The notes: generated by a model from the letters alone, not told the origin. A stretch of DNA of 64,000 nucleotides from Spirochaetia bacterium (GCA_965198005.1 CBDAOI010000004.1:416001-480000), one strand, 5' to 3'. Positions 3,656 through 50,890 are shown, counted from the first letter of the stretch. Program-made: numbers and translations.

Positions 3656-4280
3656 TAGCAAGCTTGCCTCGCCTGGGGTCGGACGGATCGGAGATGAAGC
3701 GCCATGACTACGCGCCAGGATGGCGGCAGCGCAGTGGCCGGTGGCCGGTCATGTTCGGTGACGTCCGAGTCGTTGACAGGGTGGTCGCGCCCACGCTATC
3801 ATGCTTGGCTTGGGGCGACGGATGCCGATGAAGCGCTATGAAGACCGTCAGCGCGGTGACCGGTTGGCGGTGACGTTCGGTGACCGCGGTGACCGCTGAG
3901 TCGTTGACAGGCGCGCCGCGCCTATGCTAGCGTGCCTCGCCTGGGGTTTCGACGGATGCAGATGGAGCGCCAGGATGGCGGCAGCGCAGTGGCCGGTTGG
4001 CCGTGATGACCTCCGATGGGTTGACAGGGTGGGCCGCGGCCATGCAAGCTTGCCTCGCTTGGGGTCGGACGGAACGGTGATGACGCGTCATGACGACAGT
4101 CAGCGCAGTGGCCGGTTAGCGGTCACGTTCGGTGACCTCCGGGTCATTGACAGGTTTCCGGCCGCATGCGACGGTTCACCGCTCCGGGTTGGATGGATGA
4201 GGCGCCAGGATGGCATGATGCGACATGACGCGCCAGGATGGCGTAAGCGCTGTAGCCGGTTGGCGGTGACGCGACCGGTG
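3656..4280 (+). repeat. Tandem array of ~5 degenerate ~125-bp units with sigma70-like boxes
   Basis: TTGACAGG at 3773, 3904, 4021, 4147; recurring gcctcgcctggggtcggacgga and cagcgcagtggccgg blocks. Confidence 0.85.
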
Positions 4281-4287
4281 GATCATA

Positions 4288-4306
4288 CCCCCCCCCCCCC
4301 CCCCCC
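4288..4306 (+). repeat. Poly-C tract (19 nt)
   Basis: Homopolymer about 500 bp upstream of the binding-protein gene. Confidence 0.95.
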
Positions 4307-4609
4307 TCACATTACGAACCGAGAAACAACTCACCGCTCCGGCTGATCGCGTACGCGTACGCGACCCCGCGCACACCGTCGCCTTCACCACCGCCGTAGC
4401 TATCGGTGGCGCCCGCTCGGTCCATCGCCGAACCGGCATGCTGGCCGCCCGCGTCCTTCCAGGCGACCGCAACCGTCCCGGATCCCCGCCCGCGACTAAC
4501 TGCGCGCAAAACCCACCGCCTGCGTTGGCGGCCATTCAGACTCACTGCTGCTCAGACCACCGCCACGCGTGGCGTCGTAACGCAGATCCCGACGTAAATC
4601 TAGAGAAGA

Positions 4610-4776
4610 AGGAGGTTCGAATGATACTCAAAGAACCGCACGCGCGCGCGGCGTGAGCCGGGGTGAACCCGTTGAGTCACACGCCGCGCGCTTTTAGTGA
4701 ATTTGACTCAGACTGGTCGCCCGCGTTGCGGGCCCGAGAGTAGCCAGGGAGCGGCAATCCGCTACGCAATACTCTC
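4610..4776 (+). promoter_or_regulatory. Conserved structured leader with micro-ORF (4621-4656, MILKEPHARAA)
   Basis: AGGAGG SD; 12-bp stem 4644-4655/4680-4691 followed by TTTT; GAGAGTA/TACTCTC stem; homologous to 12446-12651 and 46169-46245. Confidence 0.7.
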
Positions 4777-4800
4777 GAAATAACATTCAAGGAAGAAACG

Positions 4801-6606
4801 ATGAAGATATTTTTTGCAAGGACCTTCGCGATTGCGTTGGTCCTGATTCTGAGCGCAACCGGCCTGTGGGCCGGTGGCGCGGAAGAGGAGCCGGCAGCCG
4901 CTGCCGACAAGAAGTATGTGACCGACCCCACCACCGGCGAGGTGGTGGTAGCACCAGAGTATGGCGGGACAATAACCTTCGCCACGCCAGAGAATCCGAT
5001 TGGTACTGACATCCTGGTCGGAGTTGCAGGCTCAATCGTACAAGCCCTAATCGATCCCGTCATCGAGAAGCTGGGCATGGCGGACTGGGCAGCGCCCAGG
5101 GACAAATTCGACTTCTTCAATGGCTTCCCCCCTCCAGAATACACGAGAGGGGCTCTGGCGGAAAGCTGGTCGCAGCCCGACCCACTCACTGTTATCGTCA
5201 ACGTCCGCCAAGGCGTTCGGTGGCATGATAAGCCGCCGATGAACGGTCGGGAGCTGACCGCCCAGGACGTAGAGTTCAACTTTCACCGGCAGCTTGGCAT
5301 GGGCAGCGGTTTCACCGAGCCTGCCGAAACTCTTACTTATGGTTTCATGTGGCCAGGTGTGAAAGTGGAATCGGTAACGGCAACCGACAAATCGACGGTC
5401 GTCTTCAAGCTGCAGGAGCCAGCGCTCACTATTCTGGATGCTATCCTCAACGAAATAGGCGGCTTTATATACCCCCCCGAAGTGATCAAGGAACACGGAG
5501 ACGCGAACGACTGGAGGAACCTGGTCGGCACCGGACCCATGATGCTGACCGACTGGGTCGAAGGCAGCTCTTGGACCTGGGACAAGAATCCTGACTACTG
5601 GGGCTACGACGAAAAATACCCGGAGAACCGCTTGCCCTATATTGACCAGTTAAGGGCACTAGTTATGACGGAACCGGCAACACGTCTGGCGGGGCTGCGC
5701 ACGGGTCAGCTTGATTTATCAGGGTTTGGGCAACTATCGACTCTCGAGCAGGTAGAAAGCCTACTGAAGACCAACCCCGGAATCCGGATATGGCCGAATG
5801 CCGGTGCGTCGACTCATAGTGTTGGCCTGAACGTTCAGGTGGAGCCGTTTGACGACATCAGGGTGCGCAAGGCACTGCAGATGGCAATCAACCTCGAGGA
5901 GATCAACAACGCCTACTATAAGGGTTATGCCGATATCATCCCTCAGGGGCAGCTGAGCCGGTTTGTTTCAGAGGCTGTCATCCAATTCGAAGATTGGCCC
6001 GAAGATGTCAAGAAGGTCTTTGACTACGACCCGGAAGCTGCCGAAGCGTTGCTTGATGAGGCTGGATACAAGCGGGGCGCCGACGGGATGAGATTTAGGA
6101 CTGACATTATGCACTACGCCCCGCGCGATTTGAACTACACGCAACTGCTCCTTTCATACTTGAAAAAGATTGGTGTCGACGTAGAGATTGATGTACAGGA
6201 AAGGGCGGGGTTTGGCCCTAGAAGAACTTCGAGAGACTTTAGAATGATGATGGCAGGGGAATCGGCCGGGAAAGTGTCCCCATTGGGTTGGGCTGGGGGC
6301 ATACGCTATTTGGCGGAAACTCAATGGAACTCCTCCAATGTCAACGACCCCTGGTATGAAGCCAAGTATAAGGAGAAGCAAGCCGCTACCACCATGGAGG
6401 AAGTTAACAGCGTAACGAAAGAGCTGAATCAGTATGCGATCGAGCAGTTCTGGACGCTATTTAGTCCTATCGCCCCGTCCTTTTCGGCGAGCCAGCCGTG
6501 GGTCATAGGTTATAACGGCGAGGCGTGGTTGGGAGAAAATCGACTTCAATCCATTTTCACCCGCCTCTGGATTGATAGTGCGCTGAAGGAAGCAATGGGT
6601 TATTAG
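4801..6606 (+). CDS. ABC transporter substrate-binding protein, family 5 (peptide/nickel)
   Basis: Signal peptide, YGGT, LAESW, VGTGP, KNPDYW, PFDDIRVRKAL motifs; 601 aa. Confidence 0.92.
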   Translation: MKIFFARTFAIALVLILSATGLWAGGAEEEPAAAADKKYVTDPTTGEVVVAPEYGGTITFATPENPIGTDILVGVAGSIVQALIDPVIEKLGMADWAAPRDKFDFFNGFPPPEYTRGALAESWSQPDPLTVIVNVRQGVRWHDKPPMNGRELTAQDVEFNFHRQLGMGSGFTEPAETLTYGFMWPGVKVESVTATDKSTVVFKLQEPALTILDAILNEIGGFIYPPEVIKEHGDANDWRNLVGTGPMMLTDWVEGSSWTWDKNPDYWGYDEKYPENRLPYIDQLRALVMTEPATRLAGLRTGQLDLSGFGQLSTLEQVESLLKTNPGIRIWPNAGASTHSVGLNVQVEPFDDIRVRKALQMAINLEEINNAYYKGYADIIPQGQLSRFVSEAVIQFEDWPEDVKKVFDYDPEAAEALLDEAGYKRGADGMRFRTDIMHYAPRDLNYTQLLLSYLKKIGVDVEIDVQERAGFGPRRTSRDFRMMMAGESAGKVSPLGWAGGIRYLAETQWNSSNVNDPWYEAKYKEKQAATTMEEVNSVTKELNQYAIEQFWTLFSPIAPSFSASQPWVIGYNGEAWLGENRLQSIFTRLWIDSALKEAMGY

Positions 6607-7150: not shown

Positions 7151-7358
7151 GTTTCAAAGGGGTTTCACCCCTCTGAACTCCCCAAAACGGTGAGAGGCGA
7201 GTTTCTTGGCAGGGGTCATTCGCACCTTAGAGAGTGCCGCGCCAGCCGGGCAAGGGGATGGTCTAAGTGGATTGCGGTTTTCACCGCAATGACGGGGGAA
7301 ATGGGAATGACGAGAGAGGGCTGGCAATGACGGGGGAAATCGTGATGAGGTGTATCAC

Positions 7359-8324
7359 ATGAGAGCCTATATCATCAGGCGGTTATTGCTCATAATCCCC
7401 ACCTTGTTCATATTGACGATTCTGGTGTTTCTCTCGGTCCGCTTCATCCCGGGCGATGTAATAGACGTAATGATCGACAGGCTTGGACTATCATCAGCAG
7501 TCGGTGCGTCGTTTGACCGTGAAGCCCTCGAGCATAAGCTGGGATTGGACGTGCCTGTCCACGTGCAGTATGCACGCTGGGTAGGAGATATTTTCCTGCA
7601 CGGTAGCCTTGGCGAATCACTGATGGGCCGTGGGGCGGTGGAGGAAAAGATAGTAGATAGACTGCCGGTAACCATTGAGCTTGGCCTCCTGGCGATCATC
7701 ATCGGGCTGGTGATCGCCCTGCCGGTCGGCATCTACTCGGCGATTCGCCAGGATAGCCCCGCCGACTACATAGGGCGCTCGGTCGCCATCATCGGCCTGG
7801 CCACGCCGAACTTCTGGCTCGGCATCATGGTCATGATCTACCCGGCCATCTGGTGGGGCTGGGCGCCGCCGCTGGAGCTGGTTGCTTTCACCGAAGACCC
7901 GCTGGGGAATCTGGCGATGATCATCATTCCCAGCCTGATTCTGGGGACGGCCGCTGCTGCAAGCACCATGCGGATGACGCGCACCATGATGCTGGAGGTG
8001 CTCCGGCAGGACTATATCCGCACCGCCTGGTCCAAGGGGCTCAGGGAGCGGGCCGTGGTGGTCCGACACGCCGTCAAGAACGCACTCATCCCGGTGGTGT
8101 CCCTGATCGGCCTGCAGTTGCCGATCCTGGTAGGTGGCTCCGTTATCATGGAGAACATATTTAACCTGCCGGGGTTGGGTCGTCTCTTGCTGCTCGCTCT
8201 CAATGAGAGAGATTACCCGGTGGTCTCCGGAGTAAACCTGTTTTTCGCCACTGGGGTGGTTGGGATCAATCTGCTCATCGACCTGATCTACGCGGTCTTG
8301 GACCCGAGGGTCCGCTATGACTGA
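7359..8324 (+). CDS. Peptide/nickel ABC permease (DppB/OppB-like)
   Basis: YIIRRLL, EVLRQDYIRTAWSKGL (EAA loop), RDYPVV, LDPRVRY. Confidence 0.93.
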   Translation: MRAYIIRRLLLIIPTLFILTILVFLSVRFIPGDVIDVMIDRLGLSSAVGASFDREALEHKLGLDVPVHVQYARWVGDIFLHGSLGESLMGRGAVEEKIVDRLPVTIELGLLAIIIGLVIALPVGIYSAIRQDSPADYIGRSVAIIGLATPNFWLGIMVMIYPAIWWGWAPPLELVAFTEDPLGNLAMIIIPSLILGTAAAASTMRMTRTMMLEVLRQDYIRTAWSKGLRERAVVVRHAVKNALIPVVSLIGLQLPILVGGSVIMENIFNLPGLGRLLLLALNERDYPVVSGVNLFFATGVVGINLLIDLIYAVLDPRVRYD

Positions 8325-9201
8325 TTTCTTGCGCAGGCTGGTCAAGGAGAAGCCACTGAGCATCATCGCCGGGGTCGTGATCCTGCTGTTGATACTCGTG
8401 GCGATCTTTGCCGATATTCTGGCGCCCTTTCCGCATGATGAAGTCAACATCGTAGACCGGATGCAGGCCCCCTCCGACCGGTATCTGTTGGGGACCGACC
8501 AGTTGGGGCGCGACCTGCTGAGCCGCTTGGTCTTCGGGGCTCAGATCTCACTGACCGTCGGCCTGGCGGCGACCACGGTCAACGTAGTGGTGGCGGTGCT
8601 GATAGGCGGAACATCAGGATTCTTCGGCGGTAGACTGGACCTGGCGGTGCAGAGATTCGTCGACGCCTGGATGGCGTTCCCGGGGCTGCTGCTGTTGCTC
8701 ACCATCATGTCGTTGGTGGGGCGGGGCTTGCTGCAGATCATCGTGGTGCTGCGGGTAACGGGCGGCATCGGCGGCTCGCGCGTAATCCGCGGCGCGGTTA
8801 TTGGGGTAAATGAGAACGTCTATTTCCAGGCGGCCGAGGCGATCGGCAGCACCAGGTGGCGCACCCTCATCCGCCACGTCCTGCCCAATATCGGCGCTCC
8901 GATCATCATCGTGTTCACCGTGTTCACCATCAACGTCGGGGCGGTGATCATCAGCGAGGCAGCGCTGAGCTTCCTGGGGTTCGGTCTGCCGATTTCGGTG
9001 CCCAGCTGGGGCGGGATGCTGAGCCGGGAAGGGCGTGAGTTCATGGAGGTGGCGCCGCGGCTGGCGCTGTGGCCAGGGCTGTGCCTGACGATTGTCGTCT
9101 ACTGCCTGAACATGTTCGGCGACGCGGTGCGGGATCTGCTCGACCCGCGGCTGCGGGGTGGCGGTGGTGGTCTCGGTGCCGGAGCCGCCGGGTCGGTTTA
9201 A
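8317..9201 (+). CDS. Peptide/nickel ABC permease (DppC/OppC-like)
   Basis: LGTDQLGRD, HVLPN, EAALSFLGFG, GDAVRDLLDPR. Confidence 0.93.
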   Translation: MTDFLRRLVKEKPLSIIAGVVILLLILVAIFADILAPFPHDEVNIVDRMQAPSDRYLLGTDQLGRDLLSRLVFGAQISLTVGLAATTVNVVVAVLIGGTSGFFGGRLDLAVQRFVDAWMAFPGLLLLLTIMSLVGRGLLQIIVVLRVTGGIGGSRVIRGAVIGVNENVYFQAAEAIGSTRWRTLIRHVLPNIGAPIIIVFTVFTINVGAVIISEAALSFLGFGLPISVPSWGGMLSREGREFMEVAPRLALWPGLCLTIVVYCLNMFGDAVRDLLDPRLRGGGGGLGAGAAGSV

Positions 9202-11404: not shown

Positions 11405-11666
11405 GTATTCGATCGCGGAAACAGAGACGTTTCGGAGATCCCTACGCAAGAACAAGAACTACGCCTCGCTGTCGAAGCGGATTCGAGAAGTAGTATACCC
11501 GGTTCTCCGGCGAGAGCCACACTTTGGACCCAACATCAAACGGCTGAAGGGTGAGTTCAGCGACTTCTATCGCTATCGCGTCGGTGATCACCGGCTGTTC
11601 TACACGATTGACGAAACACAGATCGTCGTACTCATTGTAGTCGGGATTCTTGGCAAAGGTGATTGA
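11394..11666 (+). CDS. RelE/ParE family toxin (last residues replaced by antisense binding-protein DNA)
   Basis: NIKRLKG...YRYRVGDHRLFYTID. Confidence 0.85.
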   Translation: MSSKYSIAETETFRRSLRKNKNYASLSKRIREVVYPVLRREPHFGPNIKRLKGEFSDFYRYRVGDHRLFYTIDETQIVVLIVVGILGKGD

Positions 11667-12431
11667 GCTGCTCTCGACCCAATCGGTCATCATGAACGGT
11701 CCGGTGCCGACCAGGTTCCTCCAGTCGGTAACGTCGCCGTGTTGCTTGATGACCTCGGGGGCGTTCATGAAGGCATAGATGTCGTCGAGCAGTACCACCA
11801 GCGCATCAAGGGGTGGCTTCCTCAACTTGAAGACGACCGTATATTCGTCGGTGGCCGTTATCGATTCGAATTGCATCCCGGCGAGTCGGGCCGCTTGGGC
11901 GGGAGGTTCGGTGAAGCCGCTGCCGGTACCGCTATAGCGGTGGAAGTTGAACACGATATCCTCGGCAACCAGCTCGCGCCCGTTCATAGGGGGTTTGTCG
12001 TGCCAGCGAACGCCCTCGCGGATGTGGAAGATGACGGTGCTGGGATCAGGCTGTTCCCAGCTTTCCGCCAGGGCCCCGGCATAGTGTTCTTCGAGCAGAA
12101 ATTCATTTGCAAGGTCATTCACGCTTCTATCTATTGCCCAGTTCCCGTGGCCTAGTTTCTCTATGACGCCACTGACCGCTTTTGATGCCCCGTACCCCGC
12201 GATCGACATGTCAGCATTCGGAGGCTCGTACTGGTAGACGAAGGTCAATGTCCCGCCGTACTGTGGCGCCACTACCACCTTGCCGTTGGTGGGGTCGGTG
12301 ACATACTTCTTGTCGGCGGCGGACGCCGACTCCTCTTCTGCGCCAGCGGCCCAGAGGCCGGTCGCGGTCAGGACGAGGACCACCGCAACCGCGAAGGTCC
12401 GTGAAATGAGCATCTTCATTGTTTTCTCCAT
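11640..12431 (-). pseudogene. Family 5 ABC binding protein, N-terminal ~260 aa only
   Basis: Paralog of 4801-6606; similarity stops at KNPDY where it meets relE. Confidence 0.85.
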
Positions 12432-12445
12432 CCAAAGTGATTATT

Positions 12446-12651
12446 GAGAGTATTGCGGAGCGAATTGCCGCTCCCTGGCTACTCTGACGCCCGCAACCGC
12501 GGGCGCGCCCGCTAACGCAGACGGCCAGTGTGAGTCAATGCTTTGAAGCGCGCGGCGTGTGACTCACCGGGTGAGCGGGAACCAGGCCCGTAGTTCGCCC
12601 GGGCTCACGCCGCGCGCGCCTACGGTTCTTTCAGTGTCATGCGAACCTCCT
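12446..12651 (-). promoter_or_regulatory. Conserved leader copy 2 with micro-ORF MTLKEP* (12620-12640)
   Basis: Reverse complement aligns with 4610-4776; AGGAGG SD. Confidence 0.7.
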
Positions 12652-12896
12652 GCTGTTCTAGATCTACGTCGGGAGCTGCGTTGCAACGCGACGCGGGGCG
12701 GTGGTCGGCCGAGCAACGCATGTGGATGACCGGCGACGAGGGCGGTCGGTTCTGTGACGGTGAGTTGGGGGGCGGGGATCCAGGACCGATGCGGTCGTAG
12801 CCGGCGGCTGCCCCCTTGCTCCCGGCGAGGGTGCCCGCCGCGGCGTGTATAGGGCGATCAGCCGGAGCGGTTAGTTGTTTGTCGGTTCGAAAAGCT

Positions 12897-45735: not shown

Positions 45736-46168
45736 CACGCCTCGGCCAAGTGGGGAGTGGCCGGGCACCCGGCTCGCACTACCGCATCGTACGGGCCGGC
45801 ACGACCACCTATCGAAACGCCTGGGTGACAGCAGGCGCTTGCTGCACGGCTCCACCCTGGGCGCCGGTGTGGGGTCAGCCGGCGCGCCCTGCCAGCTGAC
45901 CCCACGACGCTGCCTGTGCCAGGTCGCTTACCGACACCTCCGACGACACCTCACCGGGCAATCGACCGAAAATGTTCGGGGGATGACAGGGACGCGGGCA
46001 GTGTTCGGTATTCCATGACAGAGTAAGCAGATAGCTCTGCGGCACCATCGATCCGCGTGGCGCACAGCCGCCACGCGTCCGCGCGTCCAACGGCCGGCCC
46101 GGTCGGCCGCAAACTCCAGCAGTCCACGCCCGCATGCGTAGCGACGCGGCCCATCCGTGGCCGACGAG

Positions 46169-46245
46169 GGAGGTGCAAAATGATACTCAAAGAGCCGTAG
46201 GCGCGCGCGGCGTGAGCCGGGGTGCACCCGCTGAGTCACACGCCG
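46169..46245 (+). promoter_or_regulatory. Conserved leader copy 3 (truncated) with micro-ORF MILKEP* (46180-46200)
   Basis: GGAGG SD, ATG ATA CTC AAA GAG CCG TAG, same hairpin. Confidence 0.7.
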
Positions 46246-46249
46246 TGGC

Positions 46250-50365: not shown

Positions 50366-50592
50366 GTGCGCCAGGCTAACTGGCATATGACAGAGGGTGG
50401 GAGTCCCTTGAAGCGAAGGAATAACCGATCCACGCTTCTCCGCGAGCCGTGCGCTTGCACCCGCGAGGGTGCAGGCGAAGCGTCGGTAGCGGTGCGTGCG
50501 GGCGGACTATTGAGCGTCGAAAATGACATGGTCTGGAGTGCCGAGGTTTTCACTGCTGCCGAAGGCAACACCGGTTATGTCGCTATGGTGAG
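50366..50592 (+). mobile_element. Group II intron 5' end (domain I fragment)
   Basis: Starts GTGCG where coding similarity stops; gagccgtgc..gcgag..gcgaagcgtcggtag and gagtgccga..gaaggcaaca blocks. Confidence 0.75.
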
Positions 50593-50600
50593 ACCTGACC

Positions 50601-50890
50601 GGCGCTGCGCGATCTGCTGAACGGCGGCGCGCAGGGCGACTTCCGCTGCGTGTACGCCAACGTCGAGGATGGCCAGGCGATGCGGGAGAACGTGGCGGCG
50701 GGCATGCCACCGTGCTTGCCGAACTGGCGCTCCAGGCCAGCATGACGCTGGGCGAAGGGCGGCGGTACATGGAGCTGGCGCCGCGCTTGGCGCTGTGGCT
50801 CGGTCTGTTCCTGACGGTGACGGTGTACTGCCTCAACATGGTGGGCGACGCGGTGCGCGACCTGCTCGACCCGCGCCTGCGCGGGCAGAT
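50601..50890 (+). pseudogene. AAA ATPase fragment (like 41361-41515) joined to a dppC 3' end
   Basis: ALRDLLNGGAQGDFRCVYANVE then GEGRRYMELAP...GDAVRDLLDPRLRG. Confidence 0.8.

Follow-up and report, generated by a model that had tools for sequence, protein, structure and literature searches.

An apparently translated micro-open reading frame running into a stable hairpin in a leader repeated before about 75 Dpp/Opp-type importer operons of a spirochaete

In the 64,000-nucleotide (nt) stretch of Spirochaetia bacterium DNA analysed here (GCA_965198005.1, CBDAOI010000004.1:416001-480000; hereafter the window, with positions counted from its first letter), a leader with a core of about 170 nt lies ahead of a gene for a family-5 solute-binding protein of an ATP-binding cassette (ABC) importer. 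The window genome (4.89 Mb, 66% G+C) holds 81 copies of this leader, three of them in the window (copies 1 to 3). Comparison of the copies shows that its micro-open reading frame (micro-ORF, 6-11 codons) is under selection as coding sequence and, as far as sequence can tell, is translated. The conserved part of the product, x-L-K-E-P, ends next to the foot of a 12-base-pair (bp), almost entirely G-C hairpin, P1. The element is tied to importer operons, and it probably controls about 75 Dpp/Opp-type ABC importer operons of this sponge-associated spirochaete. We propose that the leader acts as a ribosome-position switch, in which dwell, drop-off or passage of the ribosome at K-E-P would gate P1 and P1 would set read-through of the leader, a reading to which we give an even chance of being correct.

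The micro-ORF varies as a coding sequence

Copies for the codon test were gathered through both arms of P1 and not through the ORF, which avoids circularity. Of the 138 copies collected in this way, five were left out (three chance hits in unrelated taxa, one copy with an in-frame duplicated micro-ORF and one without a micro-ORF). The codon table thus holds 133 copies, 72 from the window genome and 61 from other genomes, all with at most 5 mismatches to the 18-nt consensus, a threshold that could hide very diverged ORFs. A scan of species genomes with the 18-mer returned at least 72 stretches; those in other phyla are chance matches, and the three that passed the arm filter were dropped. Over codons 3-6, departures from the consensus number 4, 9 and 87 at the first, second and third codon positions. 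The third positions of these codons deviate in 29, 6, 29 and 23 copies, respectively, and exceed the other eight of the 12 sites in variability, an arrangement expected by chance once in 495. Moreover, 86 of the 87 third-position changes are synonymous; the Pro codon is CCG in 110 copies, CCC in 8, CCT in 8 and CCA in 6, with a single TCT (Ser). Parsimony on a tree of the downstream leader gives 4, 8 and 74 events at the three positions; the tree is poorly resolved and the absolute counts are therefore inflated, but the ratio stands.

The signals for initiation are kept as well. In copy 1 (plus strand) the Shine-Dalgarno (SD) sequence GGAGG (4611-4615) lies 5 nt before the ATG (4621-4623), and the micro-ORF (4621-4656; ATG ATA CTC AAA GAA CCG CAC GCG CGC GCG GCG TGA) encodes MILKEPHARAA and stops at a TGA (4654-4656) at the top of the 5' arm of P1. 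Among the 133 copies the start codon is ATG in 115, GTG in 9, TTG in 4, CTG in 2 and another codon in 3, and it is canonical in 128; bases 2 and 3 hardly vary, and base 1 is A, G or T. An SD is present in 113 copies, as GGAGG in 92 and as GGGGG, a G-U-compatible change, in 21, and 106 of these 113 have a spacing of 5-6 nt to the start. It is because of the synonymous drift at third positions and the conservation of start codon and SD that we regard the micro-ORF as translated and x-L-K-E-P as selected. The initial annotation of this DNA, made from the window alone, had proposed a translated leader ORF, and this proposal stands up at the codon level: SD, spacing, NTG start and frame are kept across the 133 copies, and the variation is three-periodic and synonymous. 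In copy L124, from the relative G001, the micro-ORF carries an internal duplication (V-M-L-K-E-V-M-L-K-K-P-stop) that preserves its reading frame.

What is conserved is x-L-K-E-P and not Pro-stop. The exact peptide MILKEPHARAA is the majority form (56 of 133 copies), and a single copy has K-D-P in place of the conserved K-E-P at residues 4-6. At codon 7, 93 copies have His (CAC 92, CAT 1), 19 a stop and 9 Tyr (TAC 8, TAT 1); the remaining 12 have Trp, Glu, Arg, Gln, Thr or Leu. Most copies read past the Pro codon to a TGA inside the P1 arm. Codons 8-11 vary at first and second positions and are constrained as the P1 arm, not as codons.

Structure of the leader RNA

RNAalifold and folds of single sequences agree on P1, P3, P4 and a hairpin inside P4. 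In copy 1, P1 (4644-4691, plus strand) pairs GCGCGCGGCGTG (4644-4655) with CACGCCGCGCGC (4680-4691) in 12 bp, all but one of them G-C, around a loop made of a small hairpin (4658-4671) and the heptamer TGAGTCA (4673-4679). TTTT (4692-4695) follows directly 3' of P1, and TGACTCA, the complement of the loop heptamer and a candidate pseudoknot partner or sequence motif, lies at 4704-4710. P3, predicted by folding, is the hairpin GCCCGC-GTT-GCGGGC (4719-4733). In the P4 domain (4737-4775), AGAGTA (4737-4742) pairs with TACTCT (4770-4775) around the inner hairpin GGAGCGG-CAAT-CCGCTAC. Among these helices only P1 overlaps the micro-ORF. P1 starts 5 nt after the Pro codon, the TAG variants stop two nt before its arm, and the stop of the ORF (TGA 4654-4656 or TAG) falls within a ribosome footprint of the 5' arm.

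Pairs were counted in 103 model-aligned copies, 91 of them distinct, in an alignment that was fitted to the model and leans to its structure; in it, 96.3% of cells are paired, as against 24-58% with the partners slid, both-sided changes occur in 21 of 40 pairs, and the observed values were reached in 0 of 500 shuffles. Within the window genome alone covariation is uninformative (1 of 31 pairs). Compensatory changes affect 5 of 6 pairs in P3 (91 distinct rows), all 6 in P4 and all 7 in the inner P4 hairpin, and on these comparative grounds P3 and P4 are shown to be RNA helices. A stem AGAGTA/TACTCT around a hairpin that stays paired despite substitutions had been noted in the window, and the wider comparison confirms it. 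P1 is different: 98.4% of its cells are paired, with only rare G-U pairs or mismatches, and 0 of its 12 pairs change on both sides. The expected covariation is thus found in P3 and P4, but neither in P1 nor in the invariant core of TGAGTCA/TGACTCA. Because P1 does not covary, its role as RNA is argued from two properties, its stability and the tolerance of its loop. The arms do not change although a deletion or an insert of 22 nt gives the loop a length of 15, 27 or 49 nt, which argues for a hairpin rather than a double-stranded DNA site.

The variable loop also bears on the view that control is exerted on the DNA, with TGAGTCA, TGACTCA and the G-C inverted repeat serving as operators for transcription factors and the ORF being incidental. 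Each heptamer is itself a palindrome and invariant in sequence, as operators might be, but an inverted repeat whose arms are spaced 15, 27 or 49 nt apart, the coding-type selection on the ORF, the coverage of the stretch by contigs from RNA libraries and a sigma-70 scan of 4200-4900 that found 0 sites all speak against it, and we consider it very unlikely.

The two heptamers had also been taken as a switchable alternative to P1, and this part of the initial annotation is not upheld. The 5-bp core GAGTC/GACTC is invariant or nearly so, and terminal pairs are broken (98-146 in 31 of the 91 distinct rows, 104-135 in 17); covariation neither supports nor refutes the pairing. Its topology is that of an H-type pseudoknot with P1, not of an exclusive alternative. 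In copy 2 the extended pairing GTGAGTCA/TGACTCAC is present as described. The fuller model, in which slow termination at Glu-Pro-stop toggles P1 against TGAGTCA/TGACTCA, draws on the slowing of release at Pro-stop, as in TnaC and YbeL, and on the 19 copies that end in E-P-TAG and are spread over several upstream subfamilies; the stop is not the key feature it was thought to be, however, as copies 2 and 3 of the window, on which the idea drew, belong to this minority of 19 in 133, and a sense codon follows Pro in the other 114. The alternative pairing, moreover, lacks covariation and does not exclude P1, and no rut-like (Rho utilization) tract follows the micro-ORF stop in copy 1. We regard this model as improbable. 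A run of T after the stem, as in copy 1, is likewise a subfamily trait and not a general one. P1 as a canonical intrinsic terminator is rejected for most copies, since a T-rich tail is confined to a minority, and the case for a terminator/antiterminator pair is weakened by the lack of a supported alternative helix.

Copy number, operon context and distribution

A blastn search gave 87 high-scoring segment pairs (HSPs), which merged into 83 loci, and a fuzzy anchor with filters gave the 81 copies. On the same strand, 78 of the 81 are followed by a sequence like SBP_bac_5, which agrees with the placement ahead of ABC binding-protein genes noted at the outset. Of these 78, 67 look intact and eleven precede truncated or frameshifted genes; the three copies without a binding-protein gene are truncated remnants. 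A complete leader together with an intact binding-protein ORF of at least 450 residues is found in 60 of the 81, and seven more have a single full-length tblastn HSP. Over the 60 complete copies the median leader is 167.5 nt long, the spacer from the end of P4 to the start codon 24 nt and the protein 601 residues. A DppB-like permease gene follows on the same strand, 1.8-5 kb downstream, in 71 of the 81, and for this reason we treat the copies as operon leaders. The binding-protein family gives 143 N-terminal tblastn hits, of which 75 have the leader within 450 nt and 68 do not. The window genome also contains 233 DppB-like permease HSPs, and its transporter load is extreme for a genome of 4.9 Mb.

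The leader is better conserved than the proteins behind it. Median nucleotide identity of the leader is 86% among the 60 paralogs, as against 48% identity of the mature proteins, and in 17 cross-genome pairs the leader holds 86-94% while protein identity drops from 92% to 54%. Gene conversion may add to this uniformity of the leader, but it would not give rise to the codon-periodic variation of the micro-ORF. Conservation runs on into the region coding for the signal peptide.

In a search with a covariance model trained on 29 copies, 7 of 10 further genomes of the genus contain the leader, five of them with dozens of matches. The sister genus (0 of 13 genomes) and seven other families of the order (0 of 17) gave no match, although the narrowness of the model (effective sequence number 1.07) means that it could miss distant relatives. 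In an even sample of the class, the leader is present in 3 of 4 congeners and in 0 of 146 genomes from 86 other genera. The abundance of 81 copies, with dozens in several congeners, is far beyond chance. Two congeners without the leader also lack the expansion of the gene family, each having one homologue of 43-44% identity and others of at most 32%, and no proto-leader was seen upstream of the 44%-identical ortholog in a leader-less congener.

Copy number of this order, a G-C-rich hairpin and truncated remnants such as copy 3 would also fit a mobile or selfish repeat, of the miniature inverted-repeat transposable element (MITE) or repetitive extragenic palindrome (REP) kind, lying in intergenic DNA by chance. 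The context is fixed, however, in place and orientation before one gene family in 78 of 81 copies, conservation extends into signal-peptide codons, and the element is not found in congeners in which the family has not expanded. A check for MITE ends in copies 1 and 2 revealed neither terminal inverted repeats nor target duplications, and the ends AAGGAGG... and ...TACTCTC are not complementary. A mobile origin of this sort is the least probable of the explanations considered here.

The three copies of the window and their surroundings

Copy 1 precedes a gene for a family-5 solute-binding protein of 601 residues (4801-6606, plus strand; Pfam SBP_bac_5, E 5e-68), after which come DppB/DppC-like permease genes (7350-8324 and 8317-9201, plus strand; BPD_transp_1, E 2e-32 and 3e-23). 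Copy 2 (12446-12652, minus strand) matches the covariance model with 154.7 bits. Its micro-ORF (12640-12620, minus strand) runs from the ATG (12640-12638) through ACA CTG AAA GAA CCG to a TAG (12622-12620) and encodes MTLKEP, and the binding-protein gene behind it is truncated (11442-12431, a 329-residue ORF, with a tblastn HSP that covers residues 1-291). The P1 loop of copy 2 contains an insert of 22 nt (12600-12575, minus strand), and its P3 is duplicated (12525-12500, minus strand); both inserts recur in several other copies. Copy 3 (46168-46246, plus strand) is a remnant with an SD, a micro-ORF (46180-46200, MILKEP, TAG 46198-46200), the 5' arm of P1 (46203-46214), the loop and the first 7 nt of the 3' arm; the sequence after about 46246 is unrelated, and nothing like a solute-binding protein was found downstream. 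What had been stated of these three copies at the level of sequence (GGAGG, ATG, the x-L-K-E-P codons and the stems) is correct throughout. A group II intron domain at 50400-50623 (plus strand; Rfam RF02005, 130.4 bits, E 9e-37) is the sole RNA family that reaches its gathering threshold in the window.

Upstream leader, transcripts and Rho

Within subfamilies, homology extends 320-400 nt upstream of the micro-ORF into a C-rich region (about 97-99 C and 68-70 G per 250 nt). In copy 1 this subfamily-specific part occupies 4300-4610 (plus strand); it starts at a C7 tract, and the 12 members of one subfamily conserve it from there as far as the SD. The C-rich stretch precedes the micro-ORF instead of adjoining its stop. 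The gene for Rho is present in the window genome, and a scan of 4200-4900 for consensus terminators found none on the plus strand. Poly-C tracts of 7 to about 22 nt stand at the 5' edge of conserved leaders, where a promoter might be, for example at window 4300-4306 and in the upstream regions at C4:340104, C2:248247 and C2:465247 of the window genome; their length differs between paralogs, which suggests that they are prone to slippage. In the 12-member subfamily to which copies 1 and 2 belong, two occurrences of a motif of the form GTCATGAAGCGTCACGATGACAGGCAGCGCAGTGACCGGTTGGC lie upstream of the poly-C tract, about 350-500 nt before the SD, and this repeat may be an operator or promoter module.

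Evidence at the RNA level comes from two studies with four RNA-library runs in all, of which three carry the label sponge metagenome. Contig X17 record 13 (105 nt, with 1 other letter) is continuous over 4545-4649, and three contigs run from P4 into the gene (X6 4747-4835, X12 4780-4844 and X17 4771-4844). Depth is low over 4168-4301 and higher from about 4302, and leader bins are deeper than coding bins; we gave depth no weight, because paralogs sum and holes prove nothing.

A ribosome-position switch and its alternatives

In the switch that we propose, a ribosome would initiate at the strong SD and, on arriving at K-E-P, would have its leading edge against the base of P1, so that decoding of K-E-P would put the entry channel at the foot of the 12-bp G-C helix. 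To reach the majority TGA it would have to melt the whole of P1, while the TAG variants would end at its foot. Dwell, drop-off or passage to TGA would then decide whether P1 folds behind RNA polymerase, and the state of P1 would set transcription through the roughly 500-nt, C-rich and otherwise untranslated leader into the operon, by Rho-dependent control in most copies and by hairpin-plus-U termination in the minority with a T run. One translational signal would thereby be imposed on about 75 operons at once. Three elements of this scheme are inferred, namely the pause of the ribosome at K-E-P, the part played by P1 and the final termination. The input may instead be the supply of charged transfer RNA (tRNA) for Leu, Lys, Glu and Pro, which would also fit conservation at the amino-acid level and would make sense for peptide importers. 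Thus, of the leader-peptide attenuator first suggested, the coding ORF that runs into a stable hairpin is retained, and the Glu-Pro-stop and the exclusive switch are not.

A stalled ribosome could also act as in the erm and cat leaders, at the level of translation, by melting a structure that hides the ribosome site of the binding-protein gene. An ORF of 6-11 codons resembles those of drug-inducible leaders, and in many copies a small local hairpin pairs the start codon of the binding-protein gene with the segment just 5' of it (window 4783-4806 and equivalents); its stem varies by subfamily (CATACG/CGTATG, CATCG/CGATG or ATGG/CCAT). But about 145-180 nt separate the ORF from the main start, and folding, in a pseudoknot-free model, speaks against unmasking. 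With a ribosome footprint on the ORF and Pro in the P site, the unpaired probability of the main ribosome site changed by a median of -0.001 over 60 copies, and P3 and P4 fold alike with or without the footprint. We rejected unmasking on this basis, and translational attenuation of this kind seems to us highly improbable.

Several observations weigh against the switch itself. The invariance of P1 could equally mean that its sequence is recognised by a factor, and the pair counts support no helix that is mutually exclusive with P1. At least 4 T within the 8 nt after P1 are found in only 37 of 138 copies. With about 39% C and 27% G, the C-rich region upstream is no more than moderately depleted in G, and a rut site there is for that reason a guess. 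Five of the 133 copies have no canonical start. In the footprint folding the main ribosome site became more accessible by more than 0.1 in 1 of 60 copies and less so in 1 of 60. The RNA runs consist of contigs only, which cannot show starts, ends, pauses, strand or level. Finally, sister leaders with different ORFs, with ATG-TAG or with a bare SD suggest that loading of the ribosome may outweigh the peptide.

Sister leaders in the same genome

Among 107 paralogs examined, 42 near-full-length ones lack the x-L-K-E-P ORF, and they mostly carry analogous leaders, of four forms: a strong SD with M-x-P-K-T-G-Y-D-stop (8 copies with the exact pattern and synonymous variation at Thr and Gly), a strong SD with M-(Q/R/E)-N-stop (MxN), a strong SD with an ATG-TAG start-stop, and an SD that is kept where the ORF is lost. 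Examples in the window genome are at C4:1651156 (minus strand), C2:758653 (minus), C4:944800 (plus) and C2:465247 (minus). The sister leaders end, just before the gene, in a GAGAGTAG...TACTCTC domain homologous to P4, and several have long poly-C tracts. GTGTCGCCCTCGCT occurs 117 times in the window genome (at most 2 mismatches); in sister leaders it could form a pseudoknot with GCGAGGGG, its complement within the P4-like domain. These leaders support translated tiny ORFs as a design principle.

The presence of a bare SD or a start-stop in the same place also feeds a rival view, in which the main function of the leader would be the docking of a global regulator that acts in trans. This regulator, a small RNA or an RNA-binding protein, would recognise the P1 sequence, GAGTC/GACTC or P4, and the SD and micro-ORF would serve only to load a ribosome that stabilises the transcript or excludes Rho. 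Ribosome loading of a comparable kind takes place at the STAB-SD element, where the messenger RNA is stabilised or Rho is kept off. The sequence of P1 and the core of GAGTC/GACTC are invariant and do not covary, the P4-type domain is common to classes with unrelated tiny ORFs, start-stops or an SD alone, and a single common leader on about 75 operons would suit one regulator. Docking, however, leaves unexplained why the L-K-E-P residues are conserved while third positions drift, and why the Pro codon is always 5 nt from P1, and the analysis yielded no candidate factor. We see docking as a possibility, though a doubtful one.

The ribosome-position switch can also be taken further, and in its extended form x-L-K-E-P would be a ribosome-intrinsic sensor, K-(E/D)-P pausing or destabilising the ribosome at P1, with the sister ORFs completing a leader-peptide code. 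Mg2+, energy charge or the supply of aminoacyl-tRNA would then gate about 75 importer operons together, and the MxPKTGYD, MxN and start-stop classes would sort more than 140 transporter operons into separately tuned sets. We put this forward tentatively, as an idea with perhaps a small chance of being right.

Leader peptides are textbook regulators, known, to our knowledge, as single-locus devices. In the present 4.9-Mb genome, a single leader ORF has been duplicated together with its operon about 75 times, and it is conserved between species of the genus. Its number of copies, its conservation across the genus, a conserved product of 6 residues and a hairpin of invariant sequence make the element unusual. 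If the peptide sets ribosome dwell at P1, the regulon would be defined by a nascent peptide and not by a transcription factor, and it would reveal how importers of peptides and oligosaccharides are coordinated in a symbiont in which they take up a large share of the genome. A conserved product of 6 residues would rank among the shortest conserved regulatory nascent chains.

Comparison with known systems

A search of the whole window against Rfam 15 at gathering thresholds found nothing at the element, and relaxing the E value to 10 added two hits at chance level; in open-access full text, no description of a MILKEP leader or of leaders of this kind before binding-protein genes was found. The motif had not been recognised as a described leader in the initial annotation, and the Rfam result agrees. 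Corio-PBP (RF02945) is likewise a structured RNA upstream of an ABC binding-protein gene, but its match scores 15.3 bits against a gathering threshold of 63.5, lies on the opposite strand and falls outside the element, which is not a member of that family.

The leaders ermCL, MVKTD of catA86 and that of cmlA resemble the micro-ORF in that a very short ORF could act only near the peptidyl-transferase centre. In those systems, however, an adjacent ribosome site is unmasked, which is not predicted here, and the genes behind the present leader are those of nutrient importers.

With trpL, hisL and pheL, and with bmrB, described as a ribosome-mediated attenuator of bmrCD in Bacillus subtilis (PMC4191407), the leader has in common an SD-bearing ORF whose sequence extends into the 5' arm of a stable hairpin in front of genes for transport or biosynthesis. 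Unlike the trp and his type, it has Leu, Lys, Glu and Pro as single codons and no clustered regulatory codons, no terminator/antiterminator pair can be demonstrated, and the U-tract is found in a minority only.

The tnaC leader shares a conserved nascent peptide that ends in Pro, and there, as might be the case here, a held ribosome could block Rho. In contrast to tnaC, the present leader has Pro-stop in a minority of copies only and no C-rich tract beside the stop, and its peptide is much shorter than would be needed to reach through the exit tunnel.

The closest likeness is to mgtL, the leader of mgtA in E. coli and Salmonella. According to one report, the MgtL peptide begins with EPDP, acidic residues together with proline, at which the ribosome is destabilised; the leader then folds differently, which governs access to a Rho-dependent terminator, and NKDEPD, a designed motif, works in the same way (PMC11282234). 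Another defines destabilising sequences as acidic runs with intermittent prolines (10.1101/2021.02.02.429294). As in mgtL, a short ORF lies in mid-leader at a long distance upstream of the main start, proline follows an acidic residue near the N-terminus, and the genome encodes Rho. The two differ in that the single E-P here is a much weaker motif than EPDP, which tells further against the switch, in that neither alternative helices nor a rut site can be demonstrated here, in the absence of sequence similarity, and in that one leader serves about 75 operons per genome and not a single gene. In any event, although the element is not a member of the mgtL type by sequence or by a demonstrated switch, it is with leaders of that type that its way of working would seem to have most in common.

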